Assembly (NCBI GenBank): GCA_964291235.2
Contig: OZ219816.1
Span: 1,280,001-1,344,000 of the forward strand
Origin: Vicinamibacteria bacterium
Lineage (GTDB): Bacteria > Acidobacteriota > Vicinamibacteria > Marinacidobacterales > Marinacidobacteraceae
Length of the DNA stretch: 64,000 nt
Reading direction: 5' to 3'
The notes under the pieces were generated by a model, which was not told where the DNA came from, searched no databases, and worked only from the letters and a program-made list of their open reading frames with translations. Each line of letters starts with the position of its first letter. Position 1 is the stretch's first letter. Positions 28,788 to 58,631 of the stretch are shown here, piece by piece. Both the position numbers and the translations under genes were made by a program.

Positions 28788-29060
28788 CCGCTGACGCGAC
28801 TCCGAGCCCGCGCGCTTATCGGATGCCGTGGTAGCGGCTTCGGATAAGCGCCGCGTCATTATCGGATGTCGCGGCGGGCTCTCGGGCGCGGAATCGTGGT
28901 CTGATCATTATCGAAGGCCGCTGACGCAACTTCGGGCCCGCGCGCGCTTATCGGATGCCGCGGCAGCGGCTTCGGATAAGCACCGCGTCATTATCGGATG
29001 TCGCGGCGGGCTCTTGGGCCGGATTTCGGTGTCTGATCATTATCGAAAGCCGCTGGCGCG
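28788..29060. repeat. Two ~131-bp tandem repeats rich in XerC-arm-like 11-mers, abutting attL
   Basis: Units start at 28788, 28918 and (partial) 29050. Each contains TTATCGGATGC, GCTTCGGATAA, TTATCGGATGT and TTATCGAA(A/G)GC. Confidence 0.8.
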
Positions 29061-29383
29061 ACTTCCGATAATGATGCTTCCCTTGGCTTCGCGACTTCCG
29101 ATAAGGATGAGTACGGTCGAGCTGCCACCGCGTGTTTTGAGGGAGGTGGAACGGGAGGGGCGGGGCCCGTGGTGGTGCTTTCAGGGAGCGCAAAGAGGGC
29201 GGCGAGGCGCACCGGATCTTCGGCAAGAGAGAGGCGGGCGCGACGGGCGTGCCGTGGACGCGATTGCGGTGTGTCCGGCACGCAGCTCGGGCAAGGCGCG
29301 ACAGCGGGGGAGCCATCGGGGCGAGGTGAGGTCACCCAACAGGTGTCTCCGCAGCCCGGGCAGTCTTTCGGTAGAGTTGTCAT
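28991..29383 (-). CDS. 5' (N-terminal, CxxC..CxxC) fragment of the split putative replication initiator
   Basis: Reads through attL as ...REASLSEVA. The same peptide in the same phase begins the right-end ORF at attR. Confidence 0.7.
   Translation of the reverse strand: MTTLPKDCPGCGDTCWVTSPRPDGSPAVAPCPSCVPDTPQSRPRHARRARLSLAEDPVRLAALFALPESTTTGPAPPVPPPSKHAVAARPYSSLSEVAKPREASLSEVAPAAFDNDQTPKSGPRARRDIR
29061..29088 (+). other. attL: dif-like site with intact XerC arm and spacer, degenerate XerD arm
   Basis: ACTTCCGATAA-TGATGC-TTCCCTTGGCT. A second XerC arm follows at 29094-29104. Confidence 0.8.
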
Positions 29384-29503
29384 CAGCCGATCGGAGGGAT
29401 CGGTTAGCGGCTCGCCGGGTGTTTATCTTTTCCCGGCGGGTCCGCGCCTGACGGTATCACGCGAACGGGACTAGAATCCGGAGGTGTTGGGTCCGAAACC
29501 CTG

Positions 29504-29743
29504 ATGGCATACACGCTCGATACCGCCGCCGCCACGGAACGGCTCATTGCCGCTGGTGCGGATCCTGCGGTGGCGCGCGCGATCGTGACCGAGGTCGCCA
29601 GCGCGGATGATGCGCACCGGGCGGATCTGGCCACGAAAGCCGATCTCCTCGTGCTGGAAGTCCGCCTGGTGAAGTGGGGGATCGGAATTGCGCTTGGCGG
29701 CGCCGGGGTTCTCTTCGCCCTGTTGCGCTTCACCGGCGGGTAG
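29504..29743 (+). CDS. Small coiled-coil/TM protein (DUF1640/CCDC90-like)
   Basis: DT....L.AAG..A.AIV....DLATKADL..LE.RL.KW plus a C-terminal TM helix. Paralog at 31031..31333. Confidence 0.7.
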   Translation: MAYTLDTAAATERLIAAGADPAVARAIVTEVASADDAHRADLATKADLLVLEVRLVKWGIGIALGGAGVLFALLRFTGG

Positions 29744-30029
29744 GCCTGCGCGCTCTTGACTTCGAGCGTTATCGGAACTTGAGTCCGGACTTGGCGTGCC
29801 CGGGCAGCGCGAATTCGGCCGCCAGTGGGCCTGGGCAGCTCCTCGAGAAGCCCGGACCCACGGCAGTGCCGGCGAGATCCGGCCGAATTCGGATGATTTG
29901 ACATAACTCGGGCATAGGAGAGACGCGCTCCTCAGCCTCCGGAGCGCACTGGAGCCCGTTCGAAGGTGATTCGGAGGCTCCTGGGACGCCGGAATCCGGC
30001 CGGACCGGCGGGCAGGTCGTATTTGGCCA

Positions 30030-31034
30030 TCAGACGGAGATCCGCTCGACGATGTTGCGGCTGACGGAGCGGCTGCGCCGGTCGTAGAGCTGGGTGGTGG
30101 AGGGGTCCGAATGGCCGGCGAGGTACTGGACGTCCTCCATGGGGACGCCCTGGTTGAGAAGGTCGGTGATGACCATGGCCCGGAAGCTGTGCACGGTGAT
30201 GAAGCTCGGGAGGCCGGCAGCCCGGAGGCGGCGCTTGAGGATGGCGCGCAGGGTCCAGGGTTCGATGCCGGCGTCACTGAATCCCGTGGGCGAGCCCGGG
30301 GAGATGACGCGGAAGAAAGGTGTGTCCTGCGGCTGGTCGCGAATCCGGGCTGCGGCCAGGTAGGCGGCAAGCCAGGCGTCGAGGTCGATGCGGACGGGGA
30401 TTTCGCGCTGCTTGCCGCGCTTTTCGCGCATGCACAGCGTTCGGTGGTCGCCGTAGTTCCGGAGGTCCTGGAGGCGCAGCGCGGCGACGGCGCCGGCCCG
30501 GGCGCCGGTGTAGATGAGGGTGCCGAGGATGGCGCGATCGCGCACGCCGGCCCTCGAGGAAGGGTCTATGGAGGCGAGGAGGCCACGGGTCTGCGTGACG
30601 GTGATCTCCGGCGTCTTGCCTTCGCGTGACTCGGAACGGGGAGGCCGGACGGACTGGAAGGGATTGATGACGACGGCGTGGCGGGTGACGAGGAGGTCGA
30701 AGAAGTGTCGGAGCGCGGAGAGGGCGAGTTTCTGGGTGGGGATGGAGCCGCCGTAGGCGTCGAGGAAGCGGGCGGCCTGTCCCGGCGTGGCGTTGACGAG
30801 GGCGATCTCCTGGGCGGCCAGCCAGTGGAGGAAGCGCCGGACGGGGACCGCGTACGCCTTGCGGGTGTGGGGGTTGCGTAGGCGGGCGCTGAAGAATTCG
30901 TCGGCGGCGAAGGTCGCCGCTGGGCCGGCTGCCTGGAGGACCTCCAGGTGGGCGGTCGTTGGCGCCGGTGCGAGGGCCGTGTTTTGGAGGGCCTCGGAGG
31001 AGGTGTGCGCTAGAGAGTTCCCGCGGGCGGTCAT
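30030..31034 (-). CDS. Tyrosine recombinase/integrase (Xer/ResD-like)
   Basis: RDRAIL..L.YTGAR, K, HSFR, LAGH...TT.LY catalytic set. Start at ATG 31034, coupled to the upstream stop. Confidence 0.92.
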   Translation of the reverse strand: MTARGNSLAHTSSEALQNTALAPAPTTAHLEVLQAAGPAATFAADEFFSARLRNPHTRKAYAVPVRRFLHWLAAQEIALVNATPGQAARFLDAYGGSIPTQKLALSALRHFFDLLVTRHAVVINPFQSVRPPRSESREGKTPEITVTQTRGLLASIDPSSRAGVRDRAILGTLIYTGARAGAVAALRLQDLRNYGDHRTLCMREKRGKQREIPVRIDLDAWLAAYLAAARIRDQPQDTPFFRVISPGSPTGFSDAGIEPWTLRAILKRRLRAAGLPSFITVHSFRAMVITDLLNQGVPMEDVQYLAGHSDPSTTQLYDRRSRSVSRNIVERISV

Positions 31035-31333
31035 CCGGTGAGGCGCAGGGCCGCAAACAGTAGCCCGGCGATTGCCAGGGCGATGGTGATTCCCCACTTC
31101 AGGAGGCGTATTTCAAGATCGGCAATAGCGGCCTGAGCGGCTGTGTCGCTCCGGTCGATCCGGGCCACTAGATCGGTTCTCAGGTCGGCCAGGTCGGCCT
31201 TCGTGGCGAGGTTGGCGCGTTGCGCGTCGTCGGCGCGGCTGATCGTCGCGACGATCACTTCTGCCTGTTCGGCGGGCAGCCCAGCGGCGGTGAGGTCGCG
31301 GATGGCGGCGTGGGTGTCAATGGTGTAGGCCAT
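31031..31333 (-). CDS. Small coiled-coil/TM protein (DUF1640/CCDC90-like)
   Basis: MAYTIDTHAAIRDLTAAG..NLATKADL..LEIRLLKWG. Paralog of 29504..29743. Confidence 0.7.
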   Translation of the reverse strand: MAYTIDTHAAIRDLTAAGLPAEQAEVIVATISRADDAQRANLATKADLADLRTDLVARIDRSDTAAQAAIADLEIRLLKWGITIALAIAGLLFAALRLTG

Positions 31334-32868: not shown

Positions 32869-33561
32869 TCAGCGCTGCCAGTGGTAGGTTCGGCTGGGCT
32901 GCAAGATGGAGCGAACCATGGAGACGGCGTATGCCGCCGCGCCAGGGCGGGCGGGCGCAAGAAGTCGCTGTGGATGGGTTGTCATGAAGTCGCGAGGCAG
33001 GGACCGCAGTTCGGCGCGGATATCCGCCAACTGATCGGGGGAGAACGGTTGGAGGGCGCGCGGGAGCGCTTCTGGCTCGTAATGTTGGGCGACAGCAATG
33101 TCATAGAGGTCGCGCGGGACGAAGGTGTTGTTCCCAAGAATGCGGCCGCCAATCTTGCGCGCGAGGATCTCGGCGCTGGTTTCGAGAGAGATCTGGGTTC
33201 CGCGAACGGTGTCGTCGGAGCGTGGGTTGCCGGTGAAGCCGGGGGTGGTGGAGACGCTGATCTCCCCGCCGTCGGCCAAGATGATCCGAGCGAAGGCAGG
33301 GCCGGTGGTGAGTTCCCGTAGCCCGCCGGTGGCACGGTTGAGGTCACGGCTGAAGGGATCAACGTTGGCGTACAGGAGCGCATAAGGTTCGGATTTGATG
33401 AAGTAGTCGATATCTGTGCTGTGGCGATGGTGCCAGCGGGCGGCGAGCGCGGTGCCGCCGCCGAGGCAGAGATGGTGTTCGCCGCCGAGGTGTTGGCCGA
33501 GAGGCGGCCGGGTAAGTTCCAGGAGTTCGGCGGGGCCGGCCGGAAGCTTGAGGGCGGCCAT
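32869..33561 (-). CDS. Nucleotidyltransferase AbiEii/AbiGii-family toxin
   Basis: LGGGTALAARWHHRHSTDIDYF, EILARK and RDLYD motifs. Confidence 0.82.
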   Translation of the reverse strand: MAALKLPAGPAELLELTRPPLGQHLGGEHHLCLGGGTALAARWHHRHSTDIDYFIKSEPYALLYANVDPFSRDLNRATGGLRELTTGPAFARIILADGGEISVSTTPGFTGNPRSDDTVRGTQISLETSAEILARKIGGRILGNNTFVPRDLYDIAVAQHYEPEALPRALQPFSPDQLADIRAELRSLPRDFMTTHPQRLLAPARPGAAAYAVSMVRSILQPSRTYHWQR

Positions 33562-33565
33562 GGCA

Positions 33566-33829
33566 TCAACGAGCCGCGAGGACTCCGATCTGGACGCCGA
33601 TCCCGATCCCGATGGCCAGCCCGAAGACGAACCGGAAGATCCAGCGGCGGTAGACGGTGCGCCGGTGGCGGCGGAGTTCTGAGCGGAGCTCAGCTGTGGC
33701 TTCGACGATCTCGCGCAGCACCCCGCGGAGGTCCTGGCTGTTCTCGAGGAGGAGCTGGCGCAGGTGGACGTCGCCAGGGCGGGCGGTCTCCGCGAGACTG
33801 TCCGGGAGGGAGAGATCGGAGGGGCTCAT
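33566..33829 (-). CDS. Small coiled-coil membrane-anchored hypothetical protein
   Basis: ATG at 33829 overlaps the upstream stop (ATGA). C-terminal TM helix. Confidence 0.55.
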   Translation of the reverse strand: MSPSDLSLPDSLAETARPGDVHLRQLLLENSQDLRGVLREIVEATAELRSELRRHRRTVYRRWIFRFVFGLAIGIGIGVQIGVLAAR

Positions 33830-34182
33830 GGGTTCGGGCCCGGGGCGTCGGGCGCGGCCCAGCGCGAACGGCCGTGCTGGTATTTCTGGAGGGTCCCGAT
33901 GGCCTCGCGCAAGGCCTCCGGCGGGAGCGCGGCAAGGGCATGGAGGCCGGCGCGGACGAGTTCGCTCTTGCTGGCCTGGGTGGAGGCGGCGAGACAGCGC
34001 GCCTGGAGGTCGGCGAGCAGCGCGTGGTCGCTGCGGGGGAAGGAGAAGGTGGCGCGGACCGCGGTTTGCGCGGGTGGCGGAGCGGCGGCAACCCGGTCCG
34101 CGGTGTCGAAGCGCTGCTCGACGGCGGCGCTCTCGGCCGCGAGGCTGCGGCCGAGGTTGCCGAGGGGATCTTCGGAGGTCAT
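33826..34182 (-). CDS. Ribbon-helix-helix partition partner (ParG-like)
   Basis: Coupled to parA. VRATFSF beta strand followed by SKSELVRAGL helix. Confidence 0.6.
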   Translation of the reverse strand: MTSEDPLGNLGRSLAAESAAVEQRFDTADRVAAAPPPAQTAVRATFSFPRSDHALLADLQARCLAASTQASKSELVRAGLHALAALPPEALREAIGTLQKYQHGRSRWAAPDAPGPNP

Positions 34183-34865
34183 GGTGACGAGTCCTCCTCG
34201 AGGACGTTGAGGATTTCATGGGTGAGGCCGAAGATTTCGGCCTGGGCGAGCTGGGCCCGGGGCACGCCGGCGATGGTGAGGCCGCCCGCGGCGGCATGCC
34301 GGAAGGCTTCGCGGTCCCCGACCTGGGTGTTGAGGACGGGGATCCCGTATTCGGGCAGGAGGTCGCGGGTCTTGGCGGCGAGCCGCGTGCCCGCCTTGCG
34401 CTGGTTGACGACGATCCGGGCCTTGAGGCCGGGGCGCACCTGCACGACGCCGGCGATCACCTGGCGGATGGCGAGGCCGGCCCAGAGGTCGGGAGGCGAC
34501 GGGATGACCGGGACGATGGCGATGTCGGCCACCAGGAGCGCGCTGCGCGAGATGGGCGACTCGGCCGAGGGAGGGCAGTCGACGACGATGAAGTCATGGT
34601 CCTGGAGTTGCGCCCGCAGTTCACCGCGGAGGCGGTCGGCGGCACCGCTGGTGGCGAGAACGCGGGCCGGGAACGGTTTGGACGCCGGCGCCGACTCGGC
34701 CCAGCGGGTCGCCGTTCGCTGGGGATCGGCGTCGGCGACCAGGACGGAGTGGCCGCGGCGGGCGAGTTCGCCCGCCAGGCACATCGTCAGAGTCGTCTTG
34801 CCAGGCCCCCCTTTCTGGTTCACGATGGCGATGATGCGCGCGGCCTGGCTCGGGAGAGTATGCAC
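34179..34865 (-). CDS. parA: ParA/ParF-type partition ATPase (element-encoded)
   Basis: NQKGGPGKTT, DADPQ and VDCPP. Start probably GTG 34865; the upstream ORF extension is repeat DNA. Confidence 0.9.
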   Translation of the reverse strand: MHTLPSQAARIIAIVNQKGGPGKTTLTMCLAGELARRGHSVLVADADPQRTATRWAESAPASKPFPARVLATSGAADRLRGELRAQLQDHDFIVVDCPPSAESPISRSALLVADIAIVPVIPSPPDLWAGLAIRQVIAGVVQVRPGLKARIVVNQRKAGTRLAAKTRDLLPEYGIPVLNTQVGDREAFRHAAAGGLTIAGVPRAQLAQAEIFGLTHEILNVLEEDSSP

Positions 34866-34912
34866 GGTAAATACCGGTATGAAAGCATACCGTATGCAAC
34901 ATACGGTATGCA
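34858..34912. repeat. 55-bp inverted repeat, left copy (CATACCG/CGGTATG-rich)
   Basis: Reverse complement of 35949-36003 with 1 mismatch. Confidence 0.9.
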
Positions 34913-34949
34913 AGGAGTCGTCGGCCGATGTAGGCATAGAATTGACTAC

Positions 34950-35948: not shown

Positions 35949-36003
35949 TGCATACCGTATGTTGCATACGGTATGCTTTCATACCGGTATTTACGGTGCA
36001 TAC
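35949..36003. repeat. 55-bp inverted repeat, right copy
   Basis: Inverse of 34858-34912. Confidence 0.9.
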
Positions 36004-36041: not shown

Positions 36042-36590
36042 TCAGGCGTGGGCCAGCGCCAGGCCGACTCCGGCAGCGAGGAGCCAGGCCGAGGCGGCGG
36101 CAGCGATTCCGAGCCGCAGGCGGCGCCGGGAAGGCGGCCGGCCCCGGAGGGTGGCGGCGCTGATCGCTGCCGCGGCGATGGGGAGCAGGGCCGGGAAGAC
36201 GAGGCCAAGCGTGAGGCCTGCGAAGAGGGCGGCCAGGGCCATGGAGACGAGGACCGCGCACGGCGACGCGAGCGGCCCGCCCGGGCAGGGCAGCACGGAG
36301 AACTCCCAACCGGCGGCGATCAGGAGCGCGGCGCCGGCGAACGCCGCCGCGGCCGTGCCGGCGGCATAGACCGCCAGGAAGTGTGCGAAGGGCTCGGCGG
36401 TGCGAGCCTCACCGTGGTACCAGACGCGCGCACCCAGGAGCGCGGCGAACAGCCACGGCCAGGCGGCGGCGCTCGTAAGCATGGTTGCGAGGCGGGAGCC
36501 GGGGTTGCTCCAGGCTGCGACCAGCGCGGCCCAGGCGACCAGGACGCAGGCGACCGAGACCGCGAGCAGGTAGACGGCGGGGCGGGTCAA
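36042..36590 (-). CDS. Multi-pass membrane hypothetical protein
   Basis: About five hydrophobic segments. Probable TTG start overlapping the virB11 stop. Confidence 0.55.
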   Translation of the reverse strand: MTRPAVYLLAVSVACVLVAWAALVAAWSNPGSRLATMLTSAAAWPWLFAALLGARVWYHGEARTAEPFAHFLAVYAAGTAAAAFAGAALLIAAGWEFSVLPCPGGPLASPCAVLVSMALAALFAGLTLGLVFPALLPIAAAAISAATLRGRPPSRRRLRLGIAAAASAWLLAAGVGLALAHA

Positions 36591-37567
36591 GGTCCGGACG
36601 GCGCGCCCGCTGCGGCGTCCTCGATGATCCAGCTGTTGTCCTCGACCTGCCACCCGCGGACGTAGATCCCGTTCTCGACGACGCGGCGGCCGCGGATGCG
36701 GGCGGTGTGGAGGACGAGGGCGATGCCGTCCACGACGCTGCGGCAGACGACTTCCCAGGGAAGGGCGTCCCGGGCCGCCATGGCGCAGCTCGCGAGCCGG
36801 GAGAGGGCGGAGACGGCCGTGTTGGCGTGGATGGTGGTGAGGCTGCCGCCGTGGCCGGTGTTCAGGGCCTGCAGGAGGTCGGCGGCCTCGGCGCCGCGGA
36901 TCTCGCCGACCACGATGTGGTCGGGCCGATGCCGGAGCGAGTGCTTCACGAGGCTCCGGACGGTGACGGGCCGGGTGTGCGTGTCCGTGGTGTCCGCCTC
37001 GCGGGCCTCGAAGCGCACGGTGTTCGGCTGCTCGATGCGCAGCTCCAGGGTGTCCTCGATCGAGACGATGCGCTCGTCCGGAGGAAGCAGCCCGATGAGG
37101 GCGTTGACGACCGTCGTCTTGCCGGTGCCGGTGCCGCCGGAAACGAGGATGTTCCGCCTGGCGGCGAGGGTGTTCCTGGCGGCCTCGAAGAGCGCAGGAG
37201 GCAGCGAACCGGCCGTGACGAGGTCCTCCGCGGTGAAGGCGCGCTTGCCGAAGCGGCGGATGGTGATGGCGACGTGGGGCGACGCCGGCGGGACGCAGAT
37301 GGCGACGCGGGAGCCGTCCTCGAGACGCGCATCGATGGTCGGCGAAACCGTGGGATCCAGGCCGAGCGGGCGGGCGATGTGGATGGCCGCCCGCTCGAGA
37401 GTGTCCCTGTCGAGCTTCGGGGCGTCGGCGGGGCGGAGCCCCTGCCCTGCCCGCTCGACCCAGACGTTGTGCGGGCCGTTGATCATGAGCTCCGAGACGG
37501 CCATGTCGGCGAAGATGTCCTCCAGGCCGGGGAGGAACGGGCTGAGCCGGTCGATCCCGGTGCTCAT
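36587..37567 (-). CDS. virB11: T4SS ATPase VirB11/CpaF family
   Basis: DARLEDGSRV, SGGTGTGKTT, IEDTLEL, RPDHIVVGEIRG and NTGHGGSLTTIHA. Confidence 0.92.
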   Translation of the reverse strand: MSTGIDRLSPFLPGLEDIFADMAVSELMINGPHNVWVERAGQGLRPADAPKLDRDTLERAAIHIARPLGLDPTVSPTIDARLEDGSRVAICVPPASPHVAITIRRFGKRAFTAEDLVTAGSLPPALFEAARNTLAARRNILVSGGTGTGKTTVVNALIGLLPPDERIVSIEDTLELRIEQPNTVRFEAREADTTDTHTRPVTVRSLVKHSLRHRPDHIVVGEIRGAEAADLLQALNTGHGGSLTTIHANTAVSALSRLASCAMAARDALPWEVVCRSVVDGIALVLHTARIRGRRVVENGIYVRGWQVEDNSWIIEDAAAGAPSGP

Positions 37568-44426: not shown

Positions 44427-44439
44427 GGGCCGGTTCTCC

Positions 44440-45570: not shown

Positions 45571-45590
45571 GCGCCTTCGGCATGCAACTC

Positions 45591-45624
45591 GTGCATACCG
45601 TGCACATGCATACCGTTCATACGG
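45591..45624. repeat. Dispersed GCATACCG motif cluster
   Basis: GTGCATACCGTGCACATGCATACCGTTCATACGG, intergenic. Confidence 0.6.
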
Positions 45625-45642
45625 CGGGGGACGGCCCGATCG

Positions 45643-47840: not shown

Positions 47841-48147
47841 GAGGGTTGTCAGCCCGGCAGGGGCGCGAAGAGAGCCTCGGGAGAAGCCCGGAGCACCGGC
47901 TGCTCGGGGAAATGGCCCGGGAACGGCCCGAAAACGGCCTCTCTCGCCGTTTTCGGGGTCCGCGCGGGCCGGACATCGTCCGGACGGCCGCGCCGTCCTG
48001 AGGCGCGGTTTGGGGCTGACGACGCGGCGGCGCGCGCGGCGCGCGCGAGAATCGGGTCCGAAGGCTGGCGTTCTCCGGGCGGTCCGGCGGACCGGCCGTC
48101 TCCGCGAGGGGGCATCCCCGAGCGGCGGGGGGAGCGGAACGCGATGT

Positions 48148-49038: not shown

Positions 49039-51470
49039 GCGGGGCGCTCCATCTGGCGGGCGAGGGCGGCGAGGCCGCCGGTGAGGCCGTGCGCCGCGAC
49101 CGCTTCGGCGCGCCGCTCGGCGTCGGTGGGGGAGGACGTGTAGAGCCAGTAGCTCTCGGGGTCCACGTGGAGCCGGAGCACGCCGGCGGCCTGCGAGCGC
49201 CGCAGGTAGAGCTCCTGCTTGGGGACGAGCTGGCGGATGGTGGCCATCTCCGTCTCGTTGAGGCGGAAGATCTCGCCGACCTGGTCGGGCAGGTCGGGGT
49301 TGGCCAGGAACAGTTTCGTCGGCATGGACTCGAGGAGCCCCTTGGCCGCCGGGGTGGCGGTCACGTCGATCGCCGACTGGGTGGCGAGGACGAGGGCGGC
49401 GTTGCGCTTGCGCCAGGTCTTCGCGGCCTCCGCGAGGTAGGCGAGGATGGCGGGGTCCTTGAGGTACCGCCAGGCCTCGTCGACGACCATCAGCTTGACG
49501 CGGGCGGCCTCGGCCGGGTTGTCGAGGGCGAGGCGCATGCGCTCGAGGAGGTAGAAGAGCGCGGCCTCGCAGAGATCCTCGTGCTCGGCGGCGCCCGCGA
49601 GGTCGATGACCTGCCAGTCCTGGAGCTGGAGTTCGTCGGCGCCGGGGTTGTCGAAATAGGCGGCCCAGGCCCCGTTGCCGTGCCAGCGGCTCATCGCGGG
49701 CCACATCGCTTTCGGAAGCGAGGAGACGAAGGCGGAGAGCGAGCGCTGGGACTCCGGGAAGGCGTAGAGGTCCTCGACGCGGCTCCGGAGCTCCGACGGA
49801 TCCCGTCCGCTGAGCTGGTAGCCGCCGATCTTGAGCAGGCGGGTGATCCAGCCGGTGAGGAACTGGAAGGTGCGCTCACCGGGCGGCAGGGAGAAGGGCT
49901 TGAGGGCGAGCGCGCCGTCGGCGCGCTCGGGCGCGAGCTGCAGGTAGCCGCCGCCCAGGAACTGGGTGAGCCACCGGTAGCTGCCGCCGAGGTCCAGGAT
50001 GAGGACCCGCGGCTGGTACTGGAGGGCCTGGACGAGCAGGAAGTTGAGCGTGAAGCTCTTGCCCGCGCCGGTGGCCCCGAGGATGAGCGTGTGGCCGACG
50101 TCGGCCCCCGCGAAGAGGTCGTAGTGGTACGAGGTCTTCCAGGGCGTCTCGAAGGTGGCGAGCGCCGGCCGGGAGAGGTGCTTGCTGGTCCGGTGGCCGC
50201 GCGGAGGCCCGAAGAGCGGGGCGAGGCAGGCCGCGACGCCGGCGCTCGCGAAGACGGAGCGGATCTGGCGCTTCCGCGGCATCGCGGGCATGCGGGCGAA
50301 CCAGCTGGCGAGCTGCCCGTAGCCCTCGCGGATGAGCTTCGCGTCGCACCCGGCGAAGATCCGGCGCAGTTCGGCGTCCAGCCGCTCGGTCTCCGCCAGC
50401 GGGCCGTGCAGCGCGACGGTCAGCGACACGTCGCCGTAGCCGACGCCGTCGGCCTCCAGTTCGACCAGGGCGCCCCCGAGACGGTCCGCCTCGGCGTCGG
50501 CGGCCGCATCGACCATGGCGGAGGCCGTGCCTTCGGTGTCCTGCATGTGCGCCGACATCGAGTAGCGCTTCGAGAAGTAGTGGCGCTGCGCGCTCCGGAT
50601 CTTCCGCCGGGCGGCCTCGAGGGCGTAGGGACGCCACTCGAGCGAGAGCGTGAACCGCGCCTCCATGCGGGCGAGTTCGTAGAGGAGGTTGGCGCGGGCG
50701 GTCGCCGGCGGCGAGAGCAGCGAGTAGAGGATGACGGGCTCGCCGTCCAGCCGGAGGTGCCGGCGCTCGGCCTCGAGTTCGGAGAGCGGCAGCCGCCAGT
50801 TCAGGGCGCTGGGGGCGGCGTTGCCCTGCCACTCCAGGCCGGGGCGGTTGACGAGTTCGCTGAGGAAGGGGGTGGCCTCCGCCGCCGGCAGCAGCCGGAG
50901 CGGCGTGACCTCGTTGGTGAGCGCGGCCGAGGCCTCGACGAGCTGGCGGAAGCGGGTGGCGGCCTGGCGCACCTCGGCGAGCAGGTAGACGGACTCGTGG
51001 GGGTTGCGGCGGGCGCGGAGCCAGTTGCGCGCCGACTCGACGAGCCAGTGGCCGCCCCGGGGGCCGGTGCGGCCCGCCGGCTCGAGCCGGGGGTTGTGGC
51101 TCCAGACGACGAACGTCCGGAGGTCGTGGATCCGGGAGAGGAGGAAGTCGCGCCGGTTGCTCTGGGACAGGGCGGCGACGCCGTCAAGGCCGTTGACCTC
51201 CGGCAGGACGCCGGGCCGCCGGAGCAGGTAGAAGTAGAGGCGGGTATCGGTATCGAGGGAGGAGAGCAGGCGCTGCCAGCGGTTGAGGATCCGGTCGAGC
51301 TGCTCGGGGGTGCGGCCGTCCAGGACGGCGGGCTCCAGTTCGGCGGCCGCCAGGAGCTCGCCGGCGCGGGTGATGCAGAAGGGGTGCTCCTTCAGCCAGC
51401 CCCAGTAGGGCAGCTCGTCGGCGAGCGCGCCCGCCGCGGCGAAGTCCTGCTGCTCGGCCTTGAGGTTCAT
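49035..51470 (-). CDS. virB4: T4SS ATPase VirB4
   Basis: Start MNLKAE (TAATG overlap). GHTLILGATGAGKS, D.GGSY, VDEAW and RKRNA..ATQS. Confidence 0.93.
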   Translation of the reverse strand: MNLKAEQQDFAAAGALADELPYWGWLKEHPFCITRAGELLAAAELEPAVLDGRTPEQLDRILNRWQRLLSSLDTDTRLYFYLLRRPGVLPEVNGLDGVAALSQSNRRDFLLSRIHDLRTFVVWSHNPRLEPAGRTGPRGGHWLVESARNWLRARRNPHESVYLLAEVRQAATRFRQLVEASAALTNEVTPLRLLPAAEATPFLSELVNRPGLEWQGNAAPSALNWRLPLSELEAERRHLRLDGEPVILYSLLSPPATARANLLYELARMEARFTLSLEWRPYALEAARRKIRSAQRHYFSKRYSMSAHMQDTEGTASAMVDAAADAEADRLGGALVELEADGVGYGDVSLTVALHGPLAETERLDAELRRIFAGCDAKLIREGYGQLASWFARMPAMPRKRQIRSVFASAGVAACLAPLFGPPRGHRTSKHLSRPALATFETPWKTSYHYDLFAGADVGHTLILGATGAGKSFTLNFLLVQALQYQPRVLILDLGGSYRWLTQFLGGGYLQLAPERADGALALKPFSLPPGERTFQFLTGWITRLLKIGGYQLSGRDPSELRSRVEDLYAFPESQRSLSAFVSSLPKAMWPAMSRWHGNGAWAAYFDNPGADELQLQDWQVIDLAGAAEHEDLCEAALFYLLERMRLALDNPAEAARVKLMVVDEAWRYLKDPAILAYLAEAAKTWRKRNAALVLATQSAIDVTATPAAKGLLESMPTKLFLANPDLPDQVGEIFRLNETEMATIRQLVPKQELYLRRSQAAGVLRLHVDPESYWLYTSSPTDAERRAEAVAAHGLTGGLAALARQMERPA

Positions 51471-51760
51471 TACTCGAGGAGGTCGAGGTGCCAACGGGCC
51501 GGCTTGCCGGCGTCGTAGCGGGTGTGCGTCTCGGCGCTCGCCTTGACGATGGAGAGCATGTTGGGGTCCTCGCGCCAGGCGAGCAGACCGAGGCCGTAGA
51601 GGACGAGGAAGATCACGCCGCCGGTGAGGAGCGAGTTGATGGCGTTCCACATCGCCATGCCCAGGGTGCCGGCGAGCAGGAACCACCGCCTCTCGACGCC
51701 CATGATGGTGAGCGGCCGGCTCAGGGCGGGGTGGCCGTGCCAGGCGCGCCTGCCGGTCAC
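51470..51760 (-). CDS. virB3: T4SS VirB3
   Basis: L.RP.TIMGVER, two TM helices and DP motif, directly upstream of virB4. Confidence 0.85.
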   Translation of the reverse strand: MTGRRAWHGHPALSRPLTIMGVERRWFLLAGTLGMAMWNAINSLLTGGVIFLVLYGLGLLAWREDPNMLSIVKASAETHTRYDAGKPARWHLDLLE

Positions 51761-51773
51761 GGCTCAGCGCCGA

Positions 51774-51817
51774 CCGTATGCACGGTCAATACCGGATGTC
51801 GTCATACGATGCATACG
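51774..51817. repeat. Dispersed motif copy (GTATGCACGGTCAATACCGG...)
   Basis: 51776-51795 matches 34858-34877 with 1 mismatch. Intergenic between virB2 and virB3. Confidence 0.7.
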
Positions 51818-51846
51818 AGCACTAGTCCCTGTTGGCGGTGGGCGCT

Positions 51847-52143
51847 CTAGGTGAACCAGTCCAGGAAGTTGCCCGCGGCCATCGTCATGCCGAGGCCGAA
51901 GATGATCCCGGCGATCGCCTTCTTGGAGCCGCCCTCCCCGAAGGCGAACATCAGCCCGCCGATCACGATCGCGATGAGCGACAGGCCGCGCGCGATCGGG
52001 CCGGTGAAGGCGGTCTGGATGACGTTGACCGCGTTTTCCCAGGGGCTGGTGCCCGCCTTCCCGGCAAACGCCGTGCCCGGGACGAGCATGGCGGCAGCCG
52101 CCAGGGTCAGGAAAACGAAGAGACGTGAGGGGATGCGCTTCAT
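51847..52143 (-). CDS. virB2: T4SS pilin VirB2/TrbC
   Basis: PWE.....I...FTGPIA..L..IAIV..GL..AFGEG. Confidence 0.88.
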   Translation of the reverse strand: MKRIPSRLFVFLTLAAAAMLVPGTAFAGKAGTSPWENAVNVIQTAFTGPIARGLSLIAIVIGGLMFAFGEGGSKKAIAGIIFGLGMTMAAGNFLDWFT

Positions 52144-52165
52144 GGCAGGGACCTCCTGGTCTGGA

Positions 52166-52483
52166 CTATTCGGTGAAGTCGCCCTGCTCCTGTTCGGCAA
52201 GGCGGCGGGAAAGCTCGGGATCGCCGTCGCCGCGGCGCACCGAGCGCTCCGCGAGGTCGACCTTCCGGCCGATGTCGTAGAGGCCCAGGCTCCGCAGGAT
52301 CCCCGCGGCGGCGACGACGGCGGCGAGGAACGCGCTCCCCGCGTAGGCGGTGACCGGCCACCAGTACTCGGTGACGATGACCCGCCGGTAGGGGGCCAGA
52401 TAATCAAAGTGCGACGCCGCGAAGAAGACGACGGCGGCCGTGAGGGCGACGCCGACGCCGAGGCTGATCTTCCAGGGATGCAC
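52166..52483 (-). CDS. Two-TM hypothetical protein of the tra region
   Basis: Two TM helices, then L.D.GRK.DL.ER..RRG. Confidence 0.6.
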   Translation of the reverse strand: MHPWKISLGVGVALTAAVVFFAASHFDYLAPYRRVIVTEYWWPVTAYAGSAFLAAVVAAAGILRSLGLYDIGRKVDLAERSVRRGDGDPELSRRLAEQEQGDFTE

Positions 52484-52484
52484 G

Positions 52485-53387: not shown

Positions 53388-53396
53388 CGACGGGGA

Positions 53397-54392
53397 TCAG
53401 CGCCCGGGCGTCATCGCCGGCGCCTGGCGCTGGGCCACGGGGGGCGGAGGAGTCTGGGGAGCACGCTCGGGCGTCGCCCCATCGCGCGCGGCGCGCGCCT
53501 CGCGGGCGATGTCCCGTAGCTCGCCGCGGGCTGGCTTGATGAGGTTCCGCGCGATGCGGTGCCCCTCGGAGGCCGCCCGGTGCATCTCCCGCGGGTCCTC
53601 CCTAAGCGCCTTGAGCCAGGCCTGTTTGTGTTCGTCGCCGTGGTCGGGTTGATAACCGATCCCCAGGCGGTCGCCAGCGGTCATGGTGGCGATCTCGACG
53701 CGGAGTTTTTCGCGGATGTGCCCGTCGCCGTCGAGACCCTCGCTGTGGGTCTGCTTGAAGGTCTCGCGGGCCATCCGGCTCTCATGTCCGGAGGCGTGCG
53801 CCATGTTCCGGAGCGCGGTGCTGTAGTAGTGCTCCGGGCTCCGGAACTGCTTCCGCTCGGGCAGGACCACCTGGTCGTGGTCCTTGCTGTAGTAGTTCTG
53901 GTCGCCGGGGGAGTGCTTGATCTCGACGGCGGAGGCGGCGATCACGGCGTCGGCGCCGCGGTGCGCCTGCCAGTCCGGACGCCGCGGCCGCCGGTCGAGC
54001 TTCAGGCCGCGCACCTGCTCCACGTTGTAGACGATGGAGGTGCGCCAGAGCGGCTTCTGCCCGTTGCGGTCGTCGCGGAAGAGGATCCGTTCGCCCGGGC
54101 CCTTCGGCGGCTGGCCGCCCGCCTTCTTGATCTGGGCGTTCGTGATCCAGCGGTTGTCGGTGAACCCGCGGTCCTGGCCGCGGCTGGCCAGGTAGAGCGC
54201 GTTGCCGCCGGTATAGGCGCGGCCGGTGACGGCGTTCCGGGGCAGGACGGGCTCACCGGCCTTCGCTGCGCGCTGCCAGGGCGCGGTGCCGGCCTCCATC
54301 TGCCGGATGGCGGTCTCGGCGAACTTCCCGTAGTAGCGGCTGGGCGAGTCGATCGCGGGCTTCGGGGAGGGAGAGGTTTTGGCTTCAGCCAT
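53397..54392 (-). CDS. ardC: ArdC-like antirestriction protein (metal-binding motif degenerate)
   Basis: GTAPW, P.N..TG.AYTGGN.L.L, D.RW.T..Q. ALRNMAH replaces HExxH. Confidence 0.75.
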   Translation of the reverse strand: MAEAKTSPSPKPAIDSPSRYYGKFAETAIRQMEAGTAPWQRAAKAGEPVLPRNAVTGRAYTGGNALYLASRGQDRGFTDNRWITNAQIKKAGGQPPKGPGERILFRDDRNGQKPLWRTSIVYNVEQVRGLKLDRRPRRPDWQAHRGADAVIAASAVEIKHSPGDQNYYSKDHDQVVLPERKQFRSPEHYYSTALRNMAHASGHESRMARETFKQTHSEGLDGDGHIREKLRVEIATMTAGDRLGIGYQPDHGDEHKQAWLKALREDPREMHRAASEGHRIARNLIKPARGELRDIAREARAARDGATPERAPQTPPPPVAQRQAPAMTPGR

Positions 54393-54473
54393 GTTGGTTG
54401 CTCCTGGTTCAGGGGTTCGGGACAGCGAGTCGTAGAGCGCCGCCGCGGTGGTCCGGAACGGCGTGTTCGCTGT

Positions 54474-55550
54474 TCATCGTCCGGGCGTCAGGGCCGGCTG
54501 TTGGCGCGCGGGCGTGGGAGGCGTGATGCCGGGCACGCGCATCTCAGTTGCATCCGGAGGCGTGGGGCTGTCGCGCCCGACCTGCTGGATACGTTCCCTG
54601 GCGGGCTCCAGCAGATAACGGGAGATCCGTTCCGCTTCGGCAGCCGCGCGGTAGATCTCGCGAGGTTCGTCGGAAAGAGCCTTGATCCAGCTCTTGACGT
54701 ACGCGGCGCTGTTGCCGTGGCCGCCACGGGGCAGGTGGCCGACGCCGATCCGCTCGCCGGCCATCATGGCGCTGATCTCGGCGCGGAGTTCCTCGCGGGC
54801 GTAGGCGGGGCTGCCGAAACCGGCCTGTACGCCGTTGTAGAAGGTCTTCCGGTCCATGCGGGTCTGATGGCCGGACGCATGGGACAGTTCGTGAAGGGCG
54901 GTTGCGTAGTAGGCCTCCGCGCTGGGGAACTGGCCGCGCGCCGGCAGGACGATCTGGTCGGCCTGCGGGCTGTAGTAGGCGCGGTCGCCCGCGACGTGCC
55001 TGATCGGGACCTTGGCCGTTTCGATGACGGCTTCGGCGGCTTGATGCGCCTGCCAAGCCGCGACCGCCGCTTGCCGTGGGGGAAGGTCCAGATCACGGGT
55101 CTGTTCGACGTTGAACACGGTGTAGACGCGTTGCAAAGGGAATCGTTGTTCGGGGCGTTCATAGACCGGCCGGCCCTCCCCATCGACCAGGTGGCGTCCG
55201 GCTTGGTCCTTCTTCGGAACGAGTTTCTGGGTCCGGAAGAAGACAATGTGTTCGCCTCGTTCGCCCTTGCGGACGTGGCCTCCGGCTTCCCTGATCTGGC
55301 GGTATGTCGCCCAGCGGTTGTCGGTGAACCCGCGCTCCGGACCGCGAAGGGAGAGACGGAGAGCGTTGCCTCCGGTGTAGGCATTGCCGGTGATGGCGTT
55401 CCGGGGTAGCGCCTGCTCGCCAGGCTTCCAGGGACGCTGCCAGGGTGCAGTGCCCGCCTCGATCTGCTTGACGATCGCGGCGGCGAATTGCTCGTGATAT
55501 TCGGTGATGCGGTCCCGCCCGCGGGGAGTGTTGGCTTTGGCAGCGGCCAT
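54474..55550 (-). CDS. ardC: ArdC antirestriction protein (ssDNA-binding plus zincin-like domain)
   Basis: GTAPWQRPW, WATYRQ, VFNVEQ, AYYSP..D.I.LP, ALHELSH, YAREELRAE and AAYVKSW. Confidence 0.9.
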   Translation of the reverse strand: MAAAKANTPRGRDRITEYHEQFAAAIVKQIEAGTAPWQRPWKPGEQALPRNAITGNAYTGGNALRLSLRGPERGFTDNRWATYRQIREAGGHVRKGERGEHIVFFRTQKLVPKKDQAGRHLVDGEGRPVYERPEQRFPLQRVYTVFNVEQTRDLDLPPRQAAVAAWQAHQAAEAVIETAKVPIRHVAGDRAYYSPQADQIVLPARGQFPSAEAYYATALHELSHASGHQTRMDRKTFYNGVQAGFGSPAYAREELRAEISAMMAGERIGVGHLPRGGHGNSAAYVKSWIKALSDEPREIYRAAAEAERISRYLLEPARERIQQVGRDSPTPPDATEMRVPGITPPTPARQQPALTPGR

Positions 55551-55580
55551 GTTGGTTTCTCGCCGGGCGCGGGGGGGGCG

Positions 55581-55799
55581 TCAGTCCCGGTCTTCGTCGG
55601 CCAAATCCAGGAGCTCAGCTGGAAGTTCGCCGAACTCGATGGGGTCGCCGTTCTCGTCGGCGCCGGGGACCCCGAAGGCCGCGATGACCTCGCGTGGGGC
55701 GGCGATGGGCAGCCCACGGTCGAACACGCGAGCGAACTCCTCCTCGGTGTCGACGCTGAGGGCGGGCTTGCCCTCGACGATGATTTCTCGGATTGCCAT
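55581..55799 (-). CDS. Small acidic hypothetical protein
   Basis: AAGGAG RBS and ATG start. Confidence 0.55.
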   Translation of the reverse strand: MAIREIIVEGKPALSVDTEEEFARVFDRGLPIAAPREVIAAFGVPGADENGDPIEFGELPAELLDLADEDRD

Positions 55800-55816
55800 A
55801 GGTGCTCCTTCCGCGG

Positions 55817-56712
55817 TTAGCGGGATGGCTGCGCCCGCGCCTGCGGGCGCTGGATGTCGAGGAATGCCTTGCGGGTGGTCCGCTCGGCGTAGTAGTGGGG
55901 GTCGTGCTTTTCGCCGGCGCGGCGCTTCTCGAGCGCGGCGATGACCCTCTCCTGGGGGACTCCCTTGCGGAGCTGGTCCTTCGCATAGGCCCAGTCCCGG
56001 GCGGACTGGCTGGTGTCCCGGCCCTCAATCTGACGGCCGGGGGCGGGAGAGCGGTTTGGGGAAAGCTCCACCCTGGGTAGATGCGCGAACGCATGGGGGT
56101 GTGTCGCGCGGCCGGCGTGGTCGGTCCAGCGCACGGGCGCATCGTCCCGCTCCGGCTTCTTGTTGCGGAAGCCCGGGAGCCGCATCACGCGCGCAACGTC
56201 GGCCACCGAGGAGTCCCCGCCGTATTCGGCCGCCAGGCGGCGCATGGTGTCCTCCGCCTCCGGAGCCGTCCAGGCGTCCGGATCCGCGTGCCAGATCACC
56301 TGGTAGTTGTGGCGCGAACTCCGGACCACAGCCGCAGGCGGGGGCAGGGAACCGGCATGCACGTCGGCGAGGACGCGGTGGAGGGACTTGGGGCCGTTGC
56401 GGTCCAGGTCGAGCTGAAGGCGGCGCACCTTCGCCACGTCCTGCTTCTCGCGGCGGCGCCGCTGTGGGTTGACGGGGTTCATCGACACGAAGATGTCGTA
56501 GCCCTGGGCGTTCAGGGCACGAAGCCACGCCTGGAACTTCGGCGCAGTGACGGCTCGCACCTGTCGGATTCGCTGTTCCGGGTGGCGCTCTGCGACCCGG
56601 TCGATCGCGACTAAGGCGAGATGTTCAGTGTCAGCGGGATAGAGCGTCCGGATATACGCCGTGGCCTGGTCCGGATCTTGCGGTGTGTGTGTGTGTGTGT
56701 GTGTGTGGTCAC
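55817..56712 (-). CDS. RepB-type DNA primase; likely start GTG 56712 is out of frame across an (AC)12 tract
   Basis: Y..MNP, LDLD, SS..NYQ.IW, D.ARVMRLPGF.N.K and DTSQS..DW. The frame stays open and coding-like from 56560 up to the repeat. Confidence 0.75.
56683..56706. repeat. (GT)12/(AC)12 microsatellite
   Basis: Direct count from the sequence. Confidence 0.95.
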
Positions 56713-57068
56713 GGGTTTTGGGTTCGGAACCGGTTATCTATCACACTCCGGGTGGTGATGGCGAATTCGGACACCTGCTCTGGCGACAGTCCGGGTGTTA
56801 CTGAGCCGGTCGGCTGAGCTTTTCGCGTTCGTAGTTGACCCGCCGCGCTAGCGGCGGGAGAGGAAGGGGCCGCGAAGCGGAGCCCGACCGGAGGCGCGCG
56901 ACGAAGTCGCGCTCGATGGCACCATCAGGCGGGTGAGGTTAGGGCGGGAGGCCGGATTTTCAAGTCCGGCCGACAGGCCCTTTTTTTCTCCTCCCCCCCT
57001 CCGAAGGGTCGGGGTAGGGGAAGGAGCGAACGGAAGTCATTGGTTTTGCGCGTAAATTCGGGCAAGAA

Positions 57069-57176
57069 CGTGACCGGAGTACACGTCCAGCGTGACCGGA
57101 GTACACGTCCAGCGTGACCGGAGTACACGTCCAGCGTGACCGGAGTACACGTCCAAGCGTGACCGGAGTACACGTC
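57069..57176. repeat. Five tandem 22-bp iterons CGTGACCGGAGTACACGTCCAG (putative oriV)
   Basis: Units at 57069, 57091, 57113, 57135 (+1 nt) and 57158 (partial), 28 bp downstream of the putative rep gene. Confidence 0.85.
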
Positions 57177-57204
57177 GCCTAAGCGGGGACGGATTTGCGA
57201 CGTT

Positions 57205-58620
57205 TCAGTCGTCGCTGTCGTTGACGTGTGTCGTTGGCGGGAGGATCCGGCCAGGCGTGATACGGCCGACAGCGCCGGCCTCGTGGAGCGTGGAAAGAAT
57301 GCGTCGGATTCGCTCAAGACGCTTGCGTCTCCCAGGGGCCGAAACGGTGTCGCCCGACGGGTAGAAGAGAGCCATGAGATCCGCGGGGGTGAGCGGGTGA
57401 TAGCGCTCCGGATCGTCGGCATGCCGCCAGTGGACGATCTTCTTGTTGCGGCGGATCGGATAGAGGGTCTTGCCGGGTTTGTGCCATTGGTAGGCGAGCC
57501 CGATCAGGCCGCGATAGGCGAGTGCGGACCGCGCGCCCCAGTAGCGGAGGCGAGGCATGTCCACGGCGGGGCCGTTCTCGGATCCGGGCGGGTAGAGGAC
57601 GCGCACGTGGAAACGCGAGTCGAGGCCGGCGCCGATGGCAGGGGGCAAGGCCTCGAGCGAGATGACGCGGCGGTCCGTTGGATCGCCGGTTGCCGGGTCG
57701 AGCCAGCGGACCCTTGCGGCGTCCGAGTCGTAAAAACGGAGGGCTTCGCGAAGCGCGGGCCAATCCCGCCCCACGCGCCAATTGGCGGCTCCGTTCTGCC
57801 GGAGCCAGTTGACGAGATCCCGGACCGTGAACTCAAGCAGCGCCCCATCCCGGTGGTCCCGCCGGTCGAGCGGCACGGCCGCGAGAAACTCCGTCCCGAG
57901 CCGCAGGTTGATCGGGGCGGCGGAATGCCCGCCGCCGCCTGCGAAGGTAGGCCCGCCTGCACGGTCGAAGGCGGCAAGCCAGGCGGGGATCTGCACCGTG
58001 GGCGCGCGCGGGTCAGAGAATCCCGGCAGTGTCGGCGCAGGATCGCTCGGCGCGCTGAGCGAAGCCGGCAGGGATTGCTGTTGGGAATGCACGCCAGCGG
58101 CGGGCATCATCAGGGTGCCCGCCGGCAGGATGGGGTCTTTCCGGACGGTCGGGAGGACGGGAAAAGCGGCCTGGACGACTTCGTCCAGCACGGATCTGCT
58201 GCGCTGGGGATCAGCCCAGATGTTGCTCATCTGTTCGAGCAGGAAGCGCCAGGCTTCGCCATGCTCGAGAACCTTCTGGTGCCAGACGTGCTTCCGGGAG
58301 AAGTCCTCCAGAATCGGAAGGCTGGCGAGCTGCTGCGCGAGATTCCGGAGCCGCGTGGCCGGCTGCCCGTACGGGTCGACGGCGTTGTTCCAGCGCTTCA
58401 GGCGGTGGGGGTTGAGCGCCTCCTGGAACACGCGGCGCGAATACTGGGTTGCGATCGAGAGGAGGAGTTTCCGGCGCTGCCGGAAAGCCTCTCGGTCGGA
58501 GGGAGTAGCGTTCGGGGCAGCCCGGTCCGCGAGTATGGCGTCGAGCGCCTGCGGCTCGCCCGGGCGGCGACGCGCCGGATCTTCACCGGAAGTCGCTTTC
58601 GCGACTTCCGATAATGATGC
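57205..58620 (-). CDS. 3' portion of the split putative replication initiator (Rep)
   Basis: Frame is open from the dif core (ASLSEVAKATSGED...) to TGA 57205, with only an internal GTG at 58431. Adjacent to the iterons. Confidence 0.7.
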   Translation of the reverse strand, partial: ASLSEVAKATSGEDPARRRPGEPQALDAILADRAAPNATPSDREAFRQRRKLLLSIATQYSRRVFQEALNPHRLKRWNNAVDPYGQPATRLRNLAQQLASLPILEDFSRKHVWHQKVLEHGEAWRFLLEQMSNIWADPQRSRSVLDEVVQAAFPVLPTVRKDPILPAGTLMMPAAGVHSQQQSLPASLSAPSDPAPTLPGFSDPRAPTVQIPAWLAAFDRAGGPTFAGGGGHSAAPINLRLGTEFLAAVPLDRRDHRDGALLEFTVRDLVNWLRQNGAANWRVGRDWPALREALRFYDSDAARVRWLDPATGDPTDRRVISLEALPPAIGAGLDSRFHVRVLYPPGSENGPAVDMPRLRYWGARSALAYRGLIGLAYQWHKPGKTLYPIRRNKKIVHWRHADDPERYHPLTPADLMALFYPSGDTVSAPGRRKRLERIRRILSTLHEAGAVGRITPGRILPPTTHVNDSDD

Positions 58621-58631
58621 TTATGTAAAGT
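58604..58631 (+). other. dif: dif-like XerC/XerD site (attR; restored chromosomal dif)
   Basis: ACTTCCGATAA-TGATGC-TTATGTAAAGT, closely resembling B. subtilis dif ACTTCCTAGAA-TATATA-TTATGTAAACT. Confidence 0.85.

Follow-up and report, generated by a model that had tools for sequence, protein, structure and literature searches.

The locus analysed here raises the question of how an island with conjugation genes comes to lie at a dif-like site, and which recombinase put it there. We examined a 64,000-bp stretch of a Vicinamibacteria genome (GCA_964291235.2, contig OZ219816.1; hereafter the window, meaning this whole stretch), which corresponds to C2:1,280,001-1,344,000 of a 3.45-Mb genome in two contigs (C1 and C2; genome code G000). 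Within it, an island of about 29.5 kb carrying genes of a type IV secretion system (T4SS) lies between two copies of a dif-like sequence; gene families were assigned by Pfam and NCBIfam scans of selected open reading frames (ORFs). There is good support for integration of the island at dif through site-specific recombination on the XerC side. That host XerC/XerD catalysed this step, as for an integrative mobile element that exploits Xer (IMEX) with the layout of the gonococcal genetic island (GGI) and of TLC, is the account towards which we lean, with a confidence slightly above even.

The island is bounded by a 23-bp direct repeat, CGCGACTTCCGATAATGATGCTT, whose exact copies at 29057-29079 and 58600-58622 are spaced 29,543 bp apart. 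As a first-pass annotation of this DNA had described, the right copy extends into a full 11-6-11 site (ACTTCCGATAA-TGATGC-TTATGTAAAGT, 58604-58631), whereas in the left copy (L1, 29061-29088) only arm and spacer on the XerC side are retained, followed by TTCCCTTGGCT, in which 4 of 11 positions match the right arm. Overlooked in that annotation was a second pseudo-dif, L2, which lies 33 bp inside the left repeat at 29094-29121 and reads ACTTCCGATAA-GGATGA-GTACGGTCGAG. On the plus strand, GC skew amounts to +0.17 to +0.25 between ~29 kb and ~51 kb, falls but stays mostly positive as far as ~58.6 kb, and is ~0 outside, a contrast with the flanks that marks the island as a compositional unit; its recognisable genes are all on the minus strand. 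The junctions and their neighbours are as follows.

27931..28395, plus strand: host left-flank gene, SRPBCC/polyketide cyclase-like (Pfam; synteny in relatives)
28774..29065: host 132-bp tandem repeat, 2.2 copies, with inverted XerC-arm-like half-sites (CGATAA/GGATAA type); host DNA, outside the element
29057..29088, plus strand: left 23-bp repeat (29057-29079) and pseudo-dif L1 (29061-29088), with XerC arm and host-type spacer TGATGC, without XerD arm
29094..29121, plus strand: pseudo-dif L2, XerC arm and spacer GGATGA followed by GTACGGTCGAG; sequence ortholog of the left attachment site (attL) of six related elements
58600..58631, plus strand: right 23-bp repeat (58600-58622) and the site taken as host dif (58604-58631)
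58671..59573, minus strand: host right-flank gene with a PEGA domain, adjoining dif in 18/18 same-family relatives examined

Identification of the right site as the host dif, at the replication terminus, is supported by its unique motif, the GC-skew maximum, an octamer switch, conserved synteny and empty sites in relatives. The site is the only match to ATAA-N6-TTATG in the whole genome, and within 7 mismatches of it the genome holds L1 alone; a better dif elsewhere, named with the first-pass annotation as a possible refutation, was thus not found. The dnaA gene at C1:940,407 coincides with the cumulative GC-skew minimum of C1, the cumulative maximum of C2 falls at about 1.34 Mb with the site at 1,338,604, and the distance from dnaA to dif is 1,744 of 3,452 kb if the end of C1 joins the start of C2. 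In an unbiased octamer scan the most strand-skewed word was GGGCAGGG (258 copies, 88% on the leading strand, z = 12.1). On C2 this word occurs 21 times on the plus strand and 0 times on the minus strand in 1.2-1.3 Mb, and 2 versus 9 times in 1.4-1.5 Mb; the last plus copy lies at 1,336,342 and the first minus copy past the site at 1,339,643, so that the switch in polarity brackets it. Inside the element a relaxed form of the word is found 13 times on the plus and 4 times on the minus strand, and thus points towards dif there as well. Skew and the polarity of a candidate FtsK-orienting polar sequence (KOPS) had been named beforehand as the check for a terminus at this place, and both put it here. 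The host encodes XerD (334 bits, over the cut-off), a XerC-like protein (326 bits against a cut-off of 335) and an FtsK that has a gamma domain. Furthermore, 27 of 28 family genomes hold TTCCGATAA-N6-TTATGT exactly once, the remaining one being 86% complete, with 0 control matches; across these genomes the arms of dif are conserved and the spacers variable. The close relatives are Acidobacteriota, in keeping with the Acidobacteriota-like host predicted from the letters. The analysis thereby locates dif and the terminus, and identifies a KOPS-like octamer, in an uncultured lineage.

The terminus also carries a second parB-parA pair (window 61877-63497, minus strand), 3 kb to the right of dif. 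The other pair lies by dnaA at C1:945.7-947.0 kb; between the two, ParB is 49% and ParA 40% identical.

Comparison with relatives gave both occupied and empty versions of the site; none of the conclusions depends on the unpublished genome G027. The flank with the PEGA gene was found in 31/31 related genomes, and a dif-like site adjoins this gene in the same orientation in 18/18 same-family loci; at the one order-level locus examined (G028) no dif-like site was found within 8 mismatches. On the XerC side, 20 kb were compared for 18 genomes, including 15 sister species. Seven of the 15 (G002, G003, G008, G009, G010, G013 and G014) have the empty order SRPBCC gene-dif-PEGA gene that had been put forward as the arrangement to look for, with the SRPBCC gene 0.26-0.64 kb from dif. 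Six (G005, G006, G007, G011, G012 and G015) carry a related T4SS element at dif, in the same orientation and with the primase end by dif, and two (G004 and G001) have other inserts. The order in two other genera is CMD gene-dif-PEGA gene, and in G017 nothing was matched within 20 kb. The fully spanned related elements measure 37.2 kb (G005), 35.0 kb (G011) and 34.9 kb (G006), and all three show the order host array, attL, cargo, recombinase, ParA, VirB11/D4, T4SS, ArdC, primase, ~2 kb and dif. Between the element in the window and its relatives, VirB4, VirB8, VirB9 and VirB10 are 72-92% identical in amino acids; the values are lower in VirB6 (about 52-76%), in VirB2 and in the product of gene 45643-46563 (about 30%). 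That seven species hold diverged versions and 7 sister species hold clean empty sites implies that the element has been gained or lost repeatedly.

Throughout the genus, tandem units of ~130 bp precede dif, each consisting of inverted XerC-arm-like half-sites (CTTCGGATAA, CATCCGATAA, CTTTCGATAA). They occupy 28774-29065 of the window, recur at loci L009, L011, L014, L015 and L046, reach about 5 units in G006, and are present upstream of dif at empty sites too. The palindrome at the end of the array can be paired with the XerC arm and the opening bases of the spacer, and it varies in step with position 1 of the spacer (T here, G elsewhere). Such units might be remnants of earlier insertions, accessory sites or something different. 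The 14.6-kb insert of G004 was considered as a recombinase-less IMEX and rejected: 25-bp inverted repeats and identical 420-aa ORFs form its bounds, and it looks like a composite transposon within the repeat array rather than an att-flanked element. This insert (L029 5300-19430) contains a 2,121-aa ORF.

The junctions of the seven elements follow one plan. In each of the six relatives there is a single left junction, in which host palindrome, XerC arm and spacer are followed by GT[AC][AC]GGT... without XerD arm, and on the right element DNA leads up to a complete dif. L1 and L2 both share the XerC arm with dif, and L1 shares the spacer too; flanking by a dif mimic is likewise seen in 6/6 related elements. 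In 7/7 elements, the mimic forming the attachment site of the element (attP) is without any XerD arm. In a free-end pairwise alignment the attL of the relatives falls on L2, and L2 with its following sequence is closest to the attL of G015. L2 is thus the ancestral left junction, and the true left end of the element may lie 33 bp inside the start of the outer repeat. A multiple alignment of left ends had offered L1 as the counterpart of the relatives' attL, a placement disfavoured by the pairwise alignment and by the comparison with G015. L1, 33 bp further out, has the host-type spacer and is identical to the right copy at 23/23 positions; it may be a pseudo-dif that the host already had, or else the present attL of an element that had taken over an older junction. 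In three of the seven elements the left spacer is not the same as the right one.

G006: left GGATGA, right GTATGA
G012: left GGAGGA, right GGATGA
G000 (L2 and right site): left GGATGA, right TGATGC

The right spacer is specific to the host in G000, the only one of 27 with T at position 1, and in G006, the only one with GTATGA; in G012 the right spacer is the common one of the genus and the left is the variant. The differences fit a crossover at the border between XerC arm and spacer without exchange across the spacer, and they could also have arisen through later mutation.

Two features just inside the left end, both overlooked in the first-pass annotation and the second conserved in relatives, bear on the identity of the catalyst.

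30030..31097, minus strand: Xer-like tyrosine recombinase (Pfam Phage_integrase and SAM_1); 355-aa ORF, homologs about 320 aa
31365..31392, read on the minus strand: internal 11-6-11 site GGTTCGGATAA-AAAGGA-TTATCGCACCC, upstream of the recombinase gene and intact in the integrated element; putative cognate site of the recombinase

Alignment showed the recombinase to be intact, with the catalytic residues R, K, H, R, H and Y all present. It is not a canonical XerC or XerD: it scores 110 bits against the NCBIfam XerD model (cut-off 330) and 101 bits against XerC (cut-off 335), and is 24-26% identical to the host XerD and XerC; its best PDB match is XerD 1a0p. The gene lies 1.8-5 kb from the left junction in the relatives and is present in 7/7 dif-occupying elements. 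Beyond the occupied genomes, the only other match at E <= 1e-45 among 55 genomes searched in the order is G001, with three copies at 54-57% identity, and at this threshold there were no homologs in 39 genomes outside the genus. No serine recombinase was found in the genome. The wider family gave 2,787 matches at E <= 1e-20 among 8,000 scored; loci kept from it (L058-L137) come from Acidobacteriota, Gemmatimonadota, Planctomycetota, Dehalococcoidia and other metagenome-assembled genomes, with several copies in some chromosomes. Its members are about 320 aa long and end in ...VTRNIVERISV, a palindromic site, CGATAA-N6-TTATCG, lies just upstream of the gene, and at about 21 of the 80 loci kept related T4SS genes lie within 10 kb. 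Of 77 evaluable loci, 49 have an ATAA-N6-TTAT core <=800 bp upstream of the gene and 38 have one <=130 bp upstream, against a background of 0.05 per kb. The recombinase gene thus travels with an Xer-type site of its own. We know of no described function for this family of ~320-aa Xer-like recombinases.

A circular relative separates the recombinase from the dif mimic. The 34,438-bp contig of this relative (G056:C150; loci L138 and L139) has a perfect terminal redundancy of 7,933 bp and so represents a 26,505-bp circle, which carries VirB11/D4, ParA, a homolog of the 408-aa gene described below, the recombinase, ArdC and VirB genes. A mimic of the own host's dif (up to 3 mismatches in 17) is absent from this circle and from the partial loci of three other hosts. 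Since the circle has the recombinase and no dif mimic, it is the mimic, and not the recombinase, that marks the integrating lineage. Moreover, G000 itself holds two more T4SS elements, both without the Xer-like recombinase. Copy 2 (C2:531,962-551,095) and window 36352-54421 have 18 kb in common, with 95-97% nucleotide identity and several proteins that are 100% identical, and copy 3 (C1:about 1,215,000-1,234,300), at 46-80% protein identity, adjoins a tRNA-Ser(cga) and a phage-type integrase.

In the 0.5-Mb segment C2:1-510,000, GC skew and the polarity of GGGCAGGG are opposite to the prediction for a single balanced chromosome with the end of C1 joined to the start of C2. A large inversion could account for this, as could a misjoin at the 18-kb repeat or another replicon layout; T4SS copy 2 lies just beyond the switch point of the segment.

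On the account we favour, a conjugative, plasmid-like element of ~29.5 kb (VirB/VirD4 T4SS, ParA, toxin, primase and probably a replication initiator with iterons) would integrate into the dif of the terminus through a mimic made up of the XerC-binding arm and the central region only. Recombination with dif at or beside the XerC-arm/spacer border would place the element on the XerC side, with a complete dif regenerated on the right and a pseudo-dif without XerD arm left on the left. Host XerC would be the catalyst, with XerD bound or not, and the Xer-like recombinase with its adjacent 28-bp site would serve as a self-contained multimer-resolution module of the circular form. We favour host XerC/XerD because the dif mimic marks the integrating lineage, because the recombinase has a separate, intact site, and because the layout matches that of GGI and TLC. 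The pairing of an intact site with one degenerate in its XerD arm, which the first-pass annotation had likened to these two systems, is indeed the layout described in PMC5357621.

That the island itself uses host XerCD, as the IMEX reading of that annotation implies, is not established by the data. An IMEX is an element that exploits host Xer recombinases for integration (PMC4246890, PMC9765430) and encodes no integrase, and here a recombinase gene is present at 30030-31097, with counterparts in all the dif-occupying elements. Several observations pull against the favoured account. An intact Xer-clade tyrosine recombinase encoded by an element would by default be called its integrase, and in G000 its gene is the first to be recognised on entering the element from the left, 0.95 kb from the junction. 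The sister genomes with homologs at 84-88% identity are precisely the six occupied ones, and 0/7 genomes with an empty site have one. In its own site, the left arm (G[GC]TTCGGATAA) matches the XerC arm at 8-10 of 11 positions, so that the recombinase might also bind dif. An attP without any XerD arm is a further difficulty, since TLC needs an extra factor, XafT, at such a site (PMC9226527, PMC9765430), and no XafT-like family was recognised among the ORFs scanned. L1 beside L2 is not explained by one simple integration. Nor was an excised circle or an empty-site read seen among the contigs listed from public reads, the left junction being present in four runs of one study only as Logan contigs. 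Finally, no relaxase family was recognised among the ORFs scanned, several conserved ones being unassigned there, among them 41106-42701, 42074-43747, 52662-53387 and 57205-58431.

Part of this evidence would suit an ordinary integrative and conjugative element (ICE), whose Xer-like recombinase is an integrase evolved to target the XerC arm and spacer of dif, host XerCD having no catalytic part. Most ICEs do integrate by their own tyrosine recombinase (PMC5587801), and the gene in question has all six catalytic residues, lies close to the left junction, co-occurs strictly with occupancy of dif in the genus and has a putative site with one arm close to the XerC arm. We nevertheless consider this account unlikely, while taking it seriously. 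The 11-6-11 site of the recombinase is intact inside the integrated element and is thus not the attP that was used, and the non-XerC halves of attP and of dif resemble neither of its arms. Furthermore, the recombinase family is widespread away from dif, multicopy in chromosomes and present on a circular replicon without a mimic of the host dif, and the co-occurrence would be trivial if the gene is merely part of the backbone. A mixed reaction has also been weighed, in which the shared XerC arms are the substrate of host XerC, while the recombinase of the element stands in for XerD at the half of attP without XerD arm or activates the complex. The missing XerD arm in 7/7 elements, the Xer-like nature of the recombinase with XerD as its best PDB match, and the need of the TLC attP of this type for a factor of the element (PMC9226527) all point that way, but the right half of attP holds no sequence resembling the recombinase's own arms and the literature searched offers no precedent; we rate it improbable. 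We give similarly little credence to a fuller version, according to which the recombinase is a dedicated partner of host XerC, the plasmid enters and leaves dif without FtsK control by a mixed host and element Xer reaction, and the half-site arrays upstream are its traces or landing pads.

It might also be that the plasmid was captured at dif only once and is now immobile, the repeat being a scar rather than an active pair of att sites. The left site without XerD arm and the lack of a relaxase in the ORF scans would agree with a fixed remnant, as would the public contigs listed, among which neither a circle nor an empty-site read was seen. Among these Logan contigs, none bridges 28652-29057 and none has a joint or a loose end at the att sites, which says nothing about excision; one contig in run X4 starts exactly at 29057, at best a weak hint of a graph branch from an alternative left neighbour. 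Scans of metagenomes gave 0 matches for the attL string of the relatives and 0 for the L1 string. Against a remnant stand the seven species with diverged versions (72-92% amino acid identity in the best-conserved T4SS proteins) next to seven sister species with clean empty sites, the intact ORFs, and the identity of L1 and the right repeat at 23/23 positions, and we regard it as very improbable. Host XerC/XerD stays our preferred catalyst. What the locus puts forward as a question is whether the Xer-like recombinase carried by the element merely resolves multimers or takes part in the reaction at dif, and the seven junction pairs with their differing spacers provide a natural series on how an attP without XerD arm recombines.

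The remaining genes of the island, from left to right, are as follows.

32869..33561, minus strand: AbiEii-type toxin (type IV toxin-antitoxin nucleotidyltransferase; Pfam)
33826..34937, minus strand: ParA ATPase (34179-34937; Pfam) and a small downstream ORF (33826-34182; without family match)
36587..39921, minus strand: VirB11-type ATPase (about 36587-37600) and VirD4-type coupling protein (37564-39921) (Pfam/NCBIfam)
42074..52483, minus strand: T4SS block with gene 42074-43747, VirB8, VirB6, gene 45643-46563, VirB10, VirB9, VirB4, VirB3 and VirB2 (Pfam/NCBIfam)
53397..56560, minus strand: two ArdC genes (53397-54392 and 54474-55550) and a RepB-type primase (55817-56560) (Pfam)
57069..58431, minus strand: 22-bp direct repeats, 4.9 copies (57069-57176, iteron-like), and the adjoining 408-aa gene (57205-58431)

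The scans recognised VirB2, VirB3, a VirB4-like ATPase, VirB6/TrbL, VirB8, VirB9/CagX, VirB10/TrbI, VirB11 and VirD4, together with ParA, both ArdC proteins and the primase. They thus reproduce the gene list of the first-pass annotation except for its RHH gene (33826-34182) and its VirB5 (45643-46563), neither of which matched a Pfam or NCBIfam family, and add the AbiEii toxin gene (Pfam), which it had overlooked. Gene 42074-43747 (minus strand) is conserved, and its C-terminal part matches an NCBIfam model for a fused MFS/spermidine synthase with 107 bits (cut-off 40); its homologue sits between VirB9 and VirB10 in the relatives, and after VirB8 here. Tandem Repeats Finder detected palindromic repeats similar to GCATACCGGTATGC at 34871-34914 and also at 35949-35986, which are possible centromere or operator sites, and the 22-bp direct repeats at 57069-57176, another feature overlooked at first. 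The ORF next to the latter repeats (57205-58431) matched no Pfam or NCBIfam family. In a protein atlas this 408-aa protein led to Rep families only (scores 0.92-0.93, a recognition below the reliability mark of the atlas); it has 5 unnamed homologs, and its AlphaFold2 model, with a mean pLDDT of 42, is too poor for a fold search. The ORF at the corresponding position in the relative G011 has no significant BLASTP similarity to the 408-aa protein and no Pfam match. On the circle described above, 68-bp direct repeats adjoin the homolog of the 408-aa gene. Our guess is that the gene and the 22-bp repeats are a replication initiator with its iterons.

The ICE definition of the CONJscan type, as quoted in PMC5587801, includes VirB4, a coupling protein, at least three mating pair formation genes and a relaxase. 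The island has a VirB4-like ATPase, VirD4, and VirB2, VirB3, VirB6, VirB8, VirB9, VirB10 and VirB11. No origin of transfer was found for the element. Its earlier description as both conjugative and plasmid-like is supported in its second half, through ParA, the iteron-like repeats and the related circular replicon; as to the first half, the T4SS and the coupling protein suggest conjugative transfer, and no relaxase appeared in the ORF scans.

Among known systems, the GGI of Neisseria comes closest. It is a large T4SS-bearing island at dif, with a functional dif, a dif-like site whose XerC side and centre are conserved and whose XerD side is divergent, and a parA gene (PMC5357621, PMC4207684), and has been described as an "unusually long IMEX". 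In contrast to the element studied here, however, the T4SS of the GGI is F-like (Tra genes) and its relaxase is of the MOBH type, and the available sections of these papers report no recombinase for it. The element in the window has a VirB/Trb-type T4SS, a putative Rep with iterons and an Xer-like recombinase accompanied by a site of its own; it shows no relaxase in the ORF scans, and its host belongs to another phylum. The element also falls outside the GGI family, which is defined by the F-like Tra T4SS and a MOBH TraI: the Pfam matches are to VirB8, CagX, TrbI, TrbL, VirB3 and TrbC/VirB2, and no TraI_2 match was obtained. TLC-phi of Vibrio cholerae resembles it in that attP matches dif at the XerC arm and centre, has a divergent XerD side and regenerates dif on one side upon integration (PMC5357621, PMC9226527), but is a small satellite phage whose XerD-first exchange is activated by its own factor XafT. 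LME-1 of Legionella, a host with the single recombinase XerL, is likewise episome-like, uses a 22-bp partial dif mimic and leaves one intact and one modified dif, an outcome that stabilises the integrated form (PMC9765430). LME-1 differs in being phage-like and in having a one-recombinase host, whereas the host here has XerC, XerD and FtsK and the element is of conjugative type. With its 11-6-11 site directly upstream, the recombinase of the element recalls XerS/difSL, XerH/difH and plasmid resolution systems, in which the site adjoins the gene, XerS and XerH with their sites having been described as a genetic module (PMC5357621). Unlike these, the module found here resides on mobile elements of many phyla, and its recombinase is 24-26% identical to host XerC/XerD. 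In the full-text literature searched, which left supplements and subscription journals outside its scope, we found no VirB-type or acidobacterial conjugative element at dif and no IMEX with an Xer-like recombinase; the GGI is the only T4SS-bearing island that this literature, as far as available, places at dif, and GGI-like T4SSs outside Neisseria were not found there according to the available part of PMC4207684. Of the 16 species sampled in one Acidobacteriota genus, 7 have dif occupied by an unrelated, VirB-type and plasmid-like family. Together with the clean empty sites of the sister species, this family suggests that the capture of dif by conjugative plasmids arose more than once.

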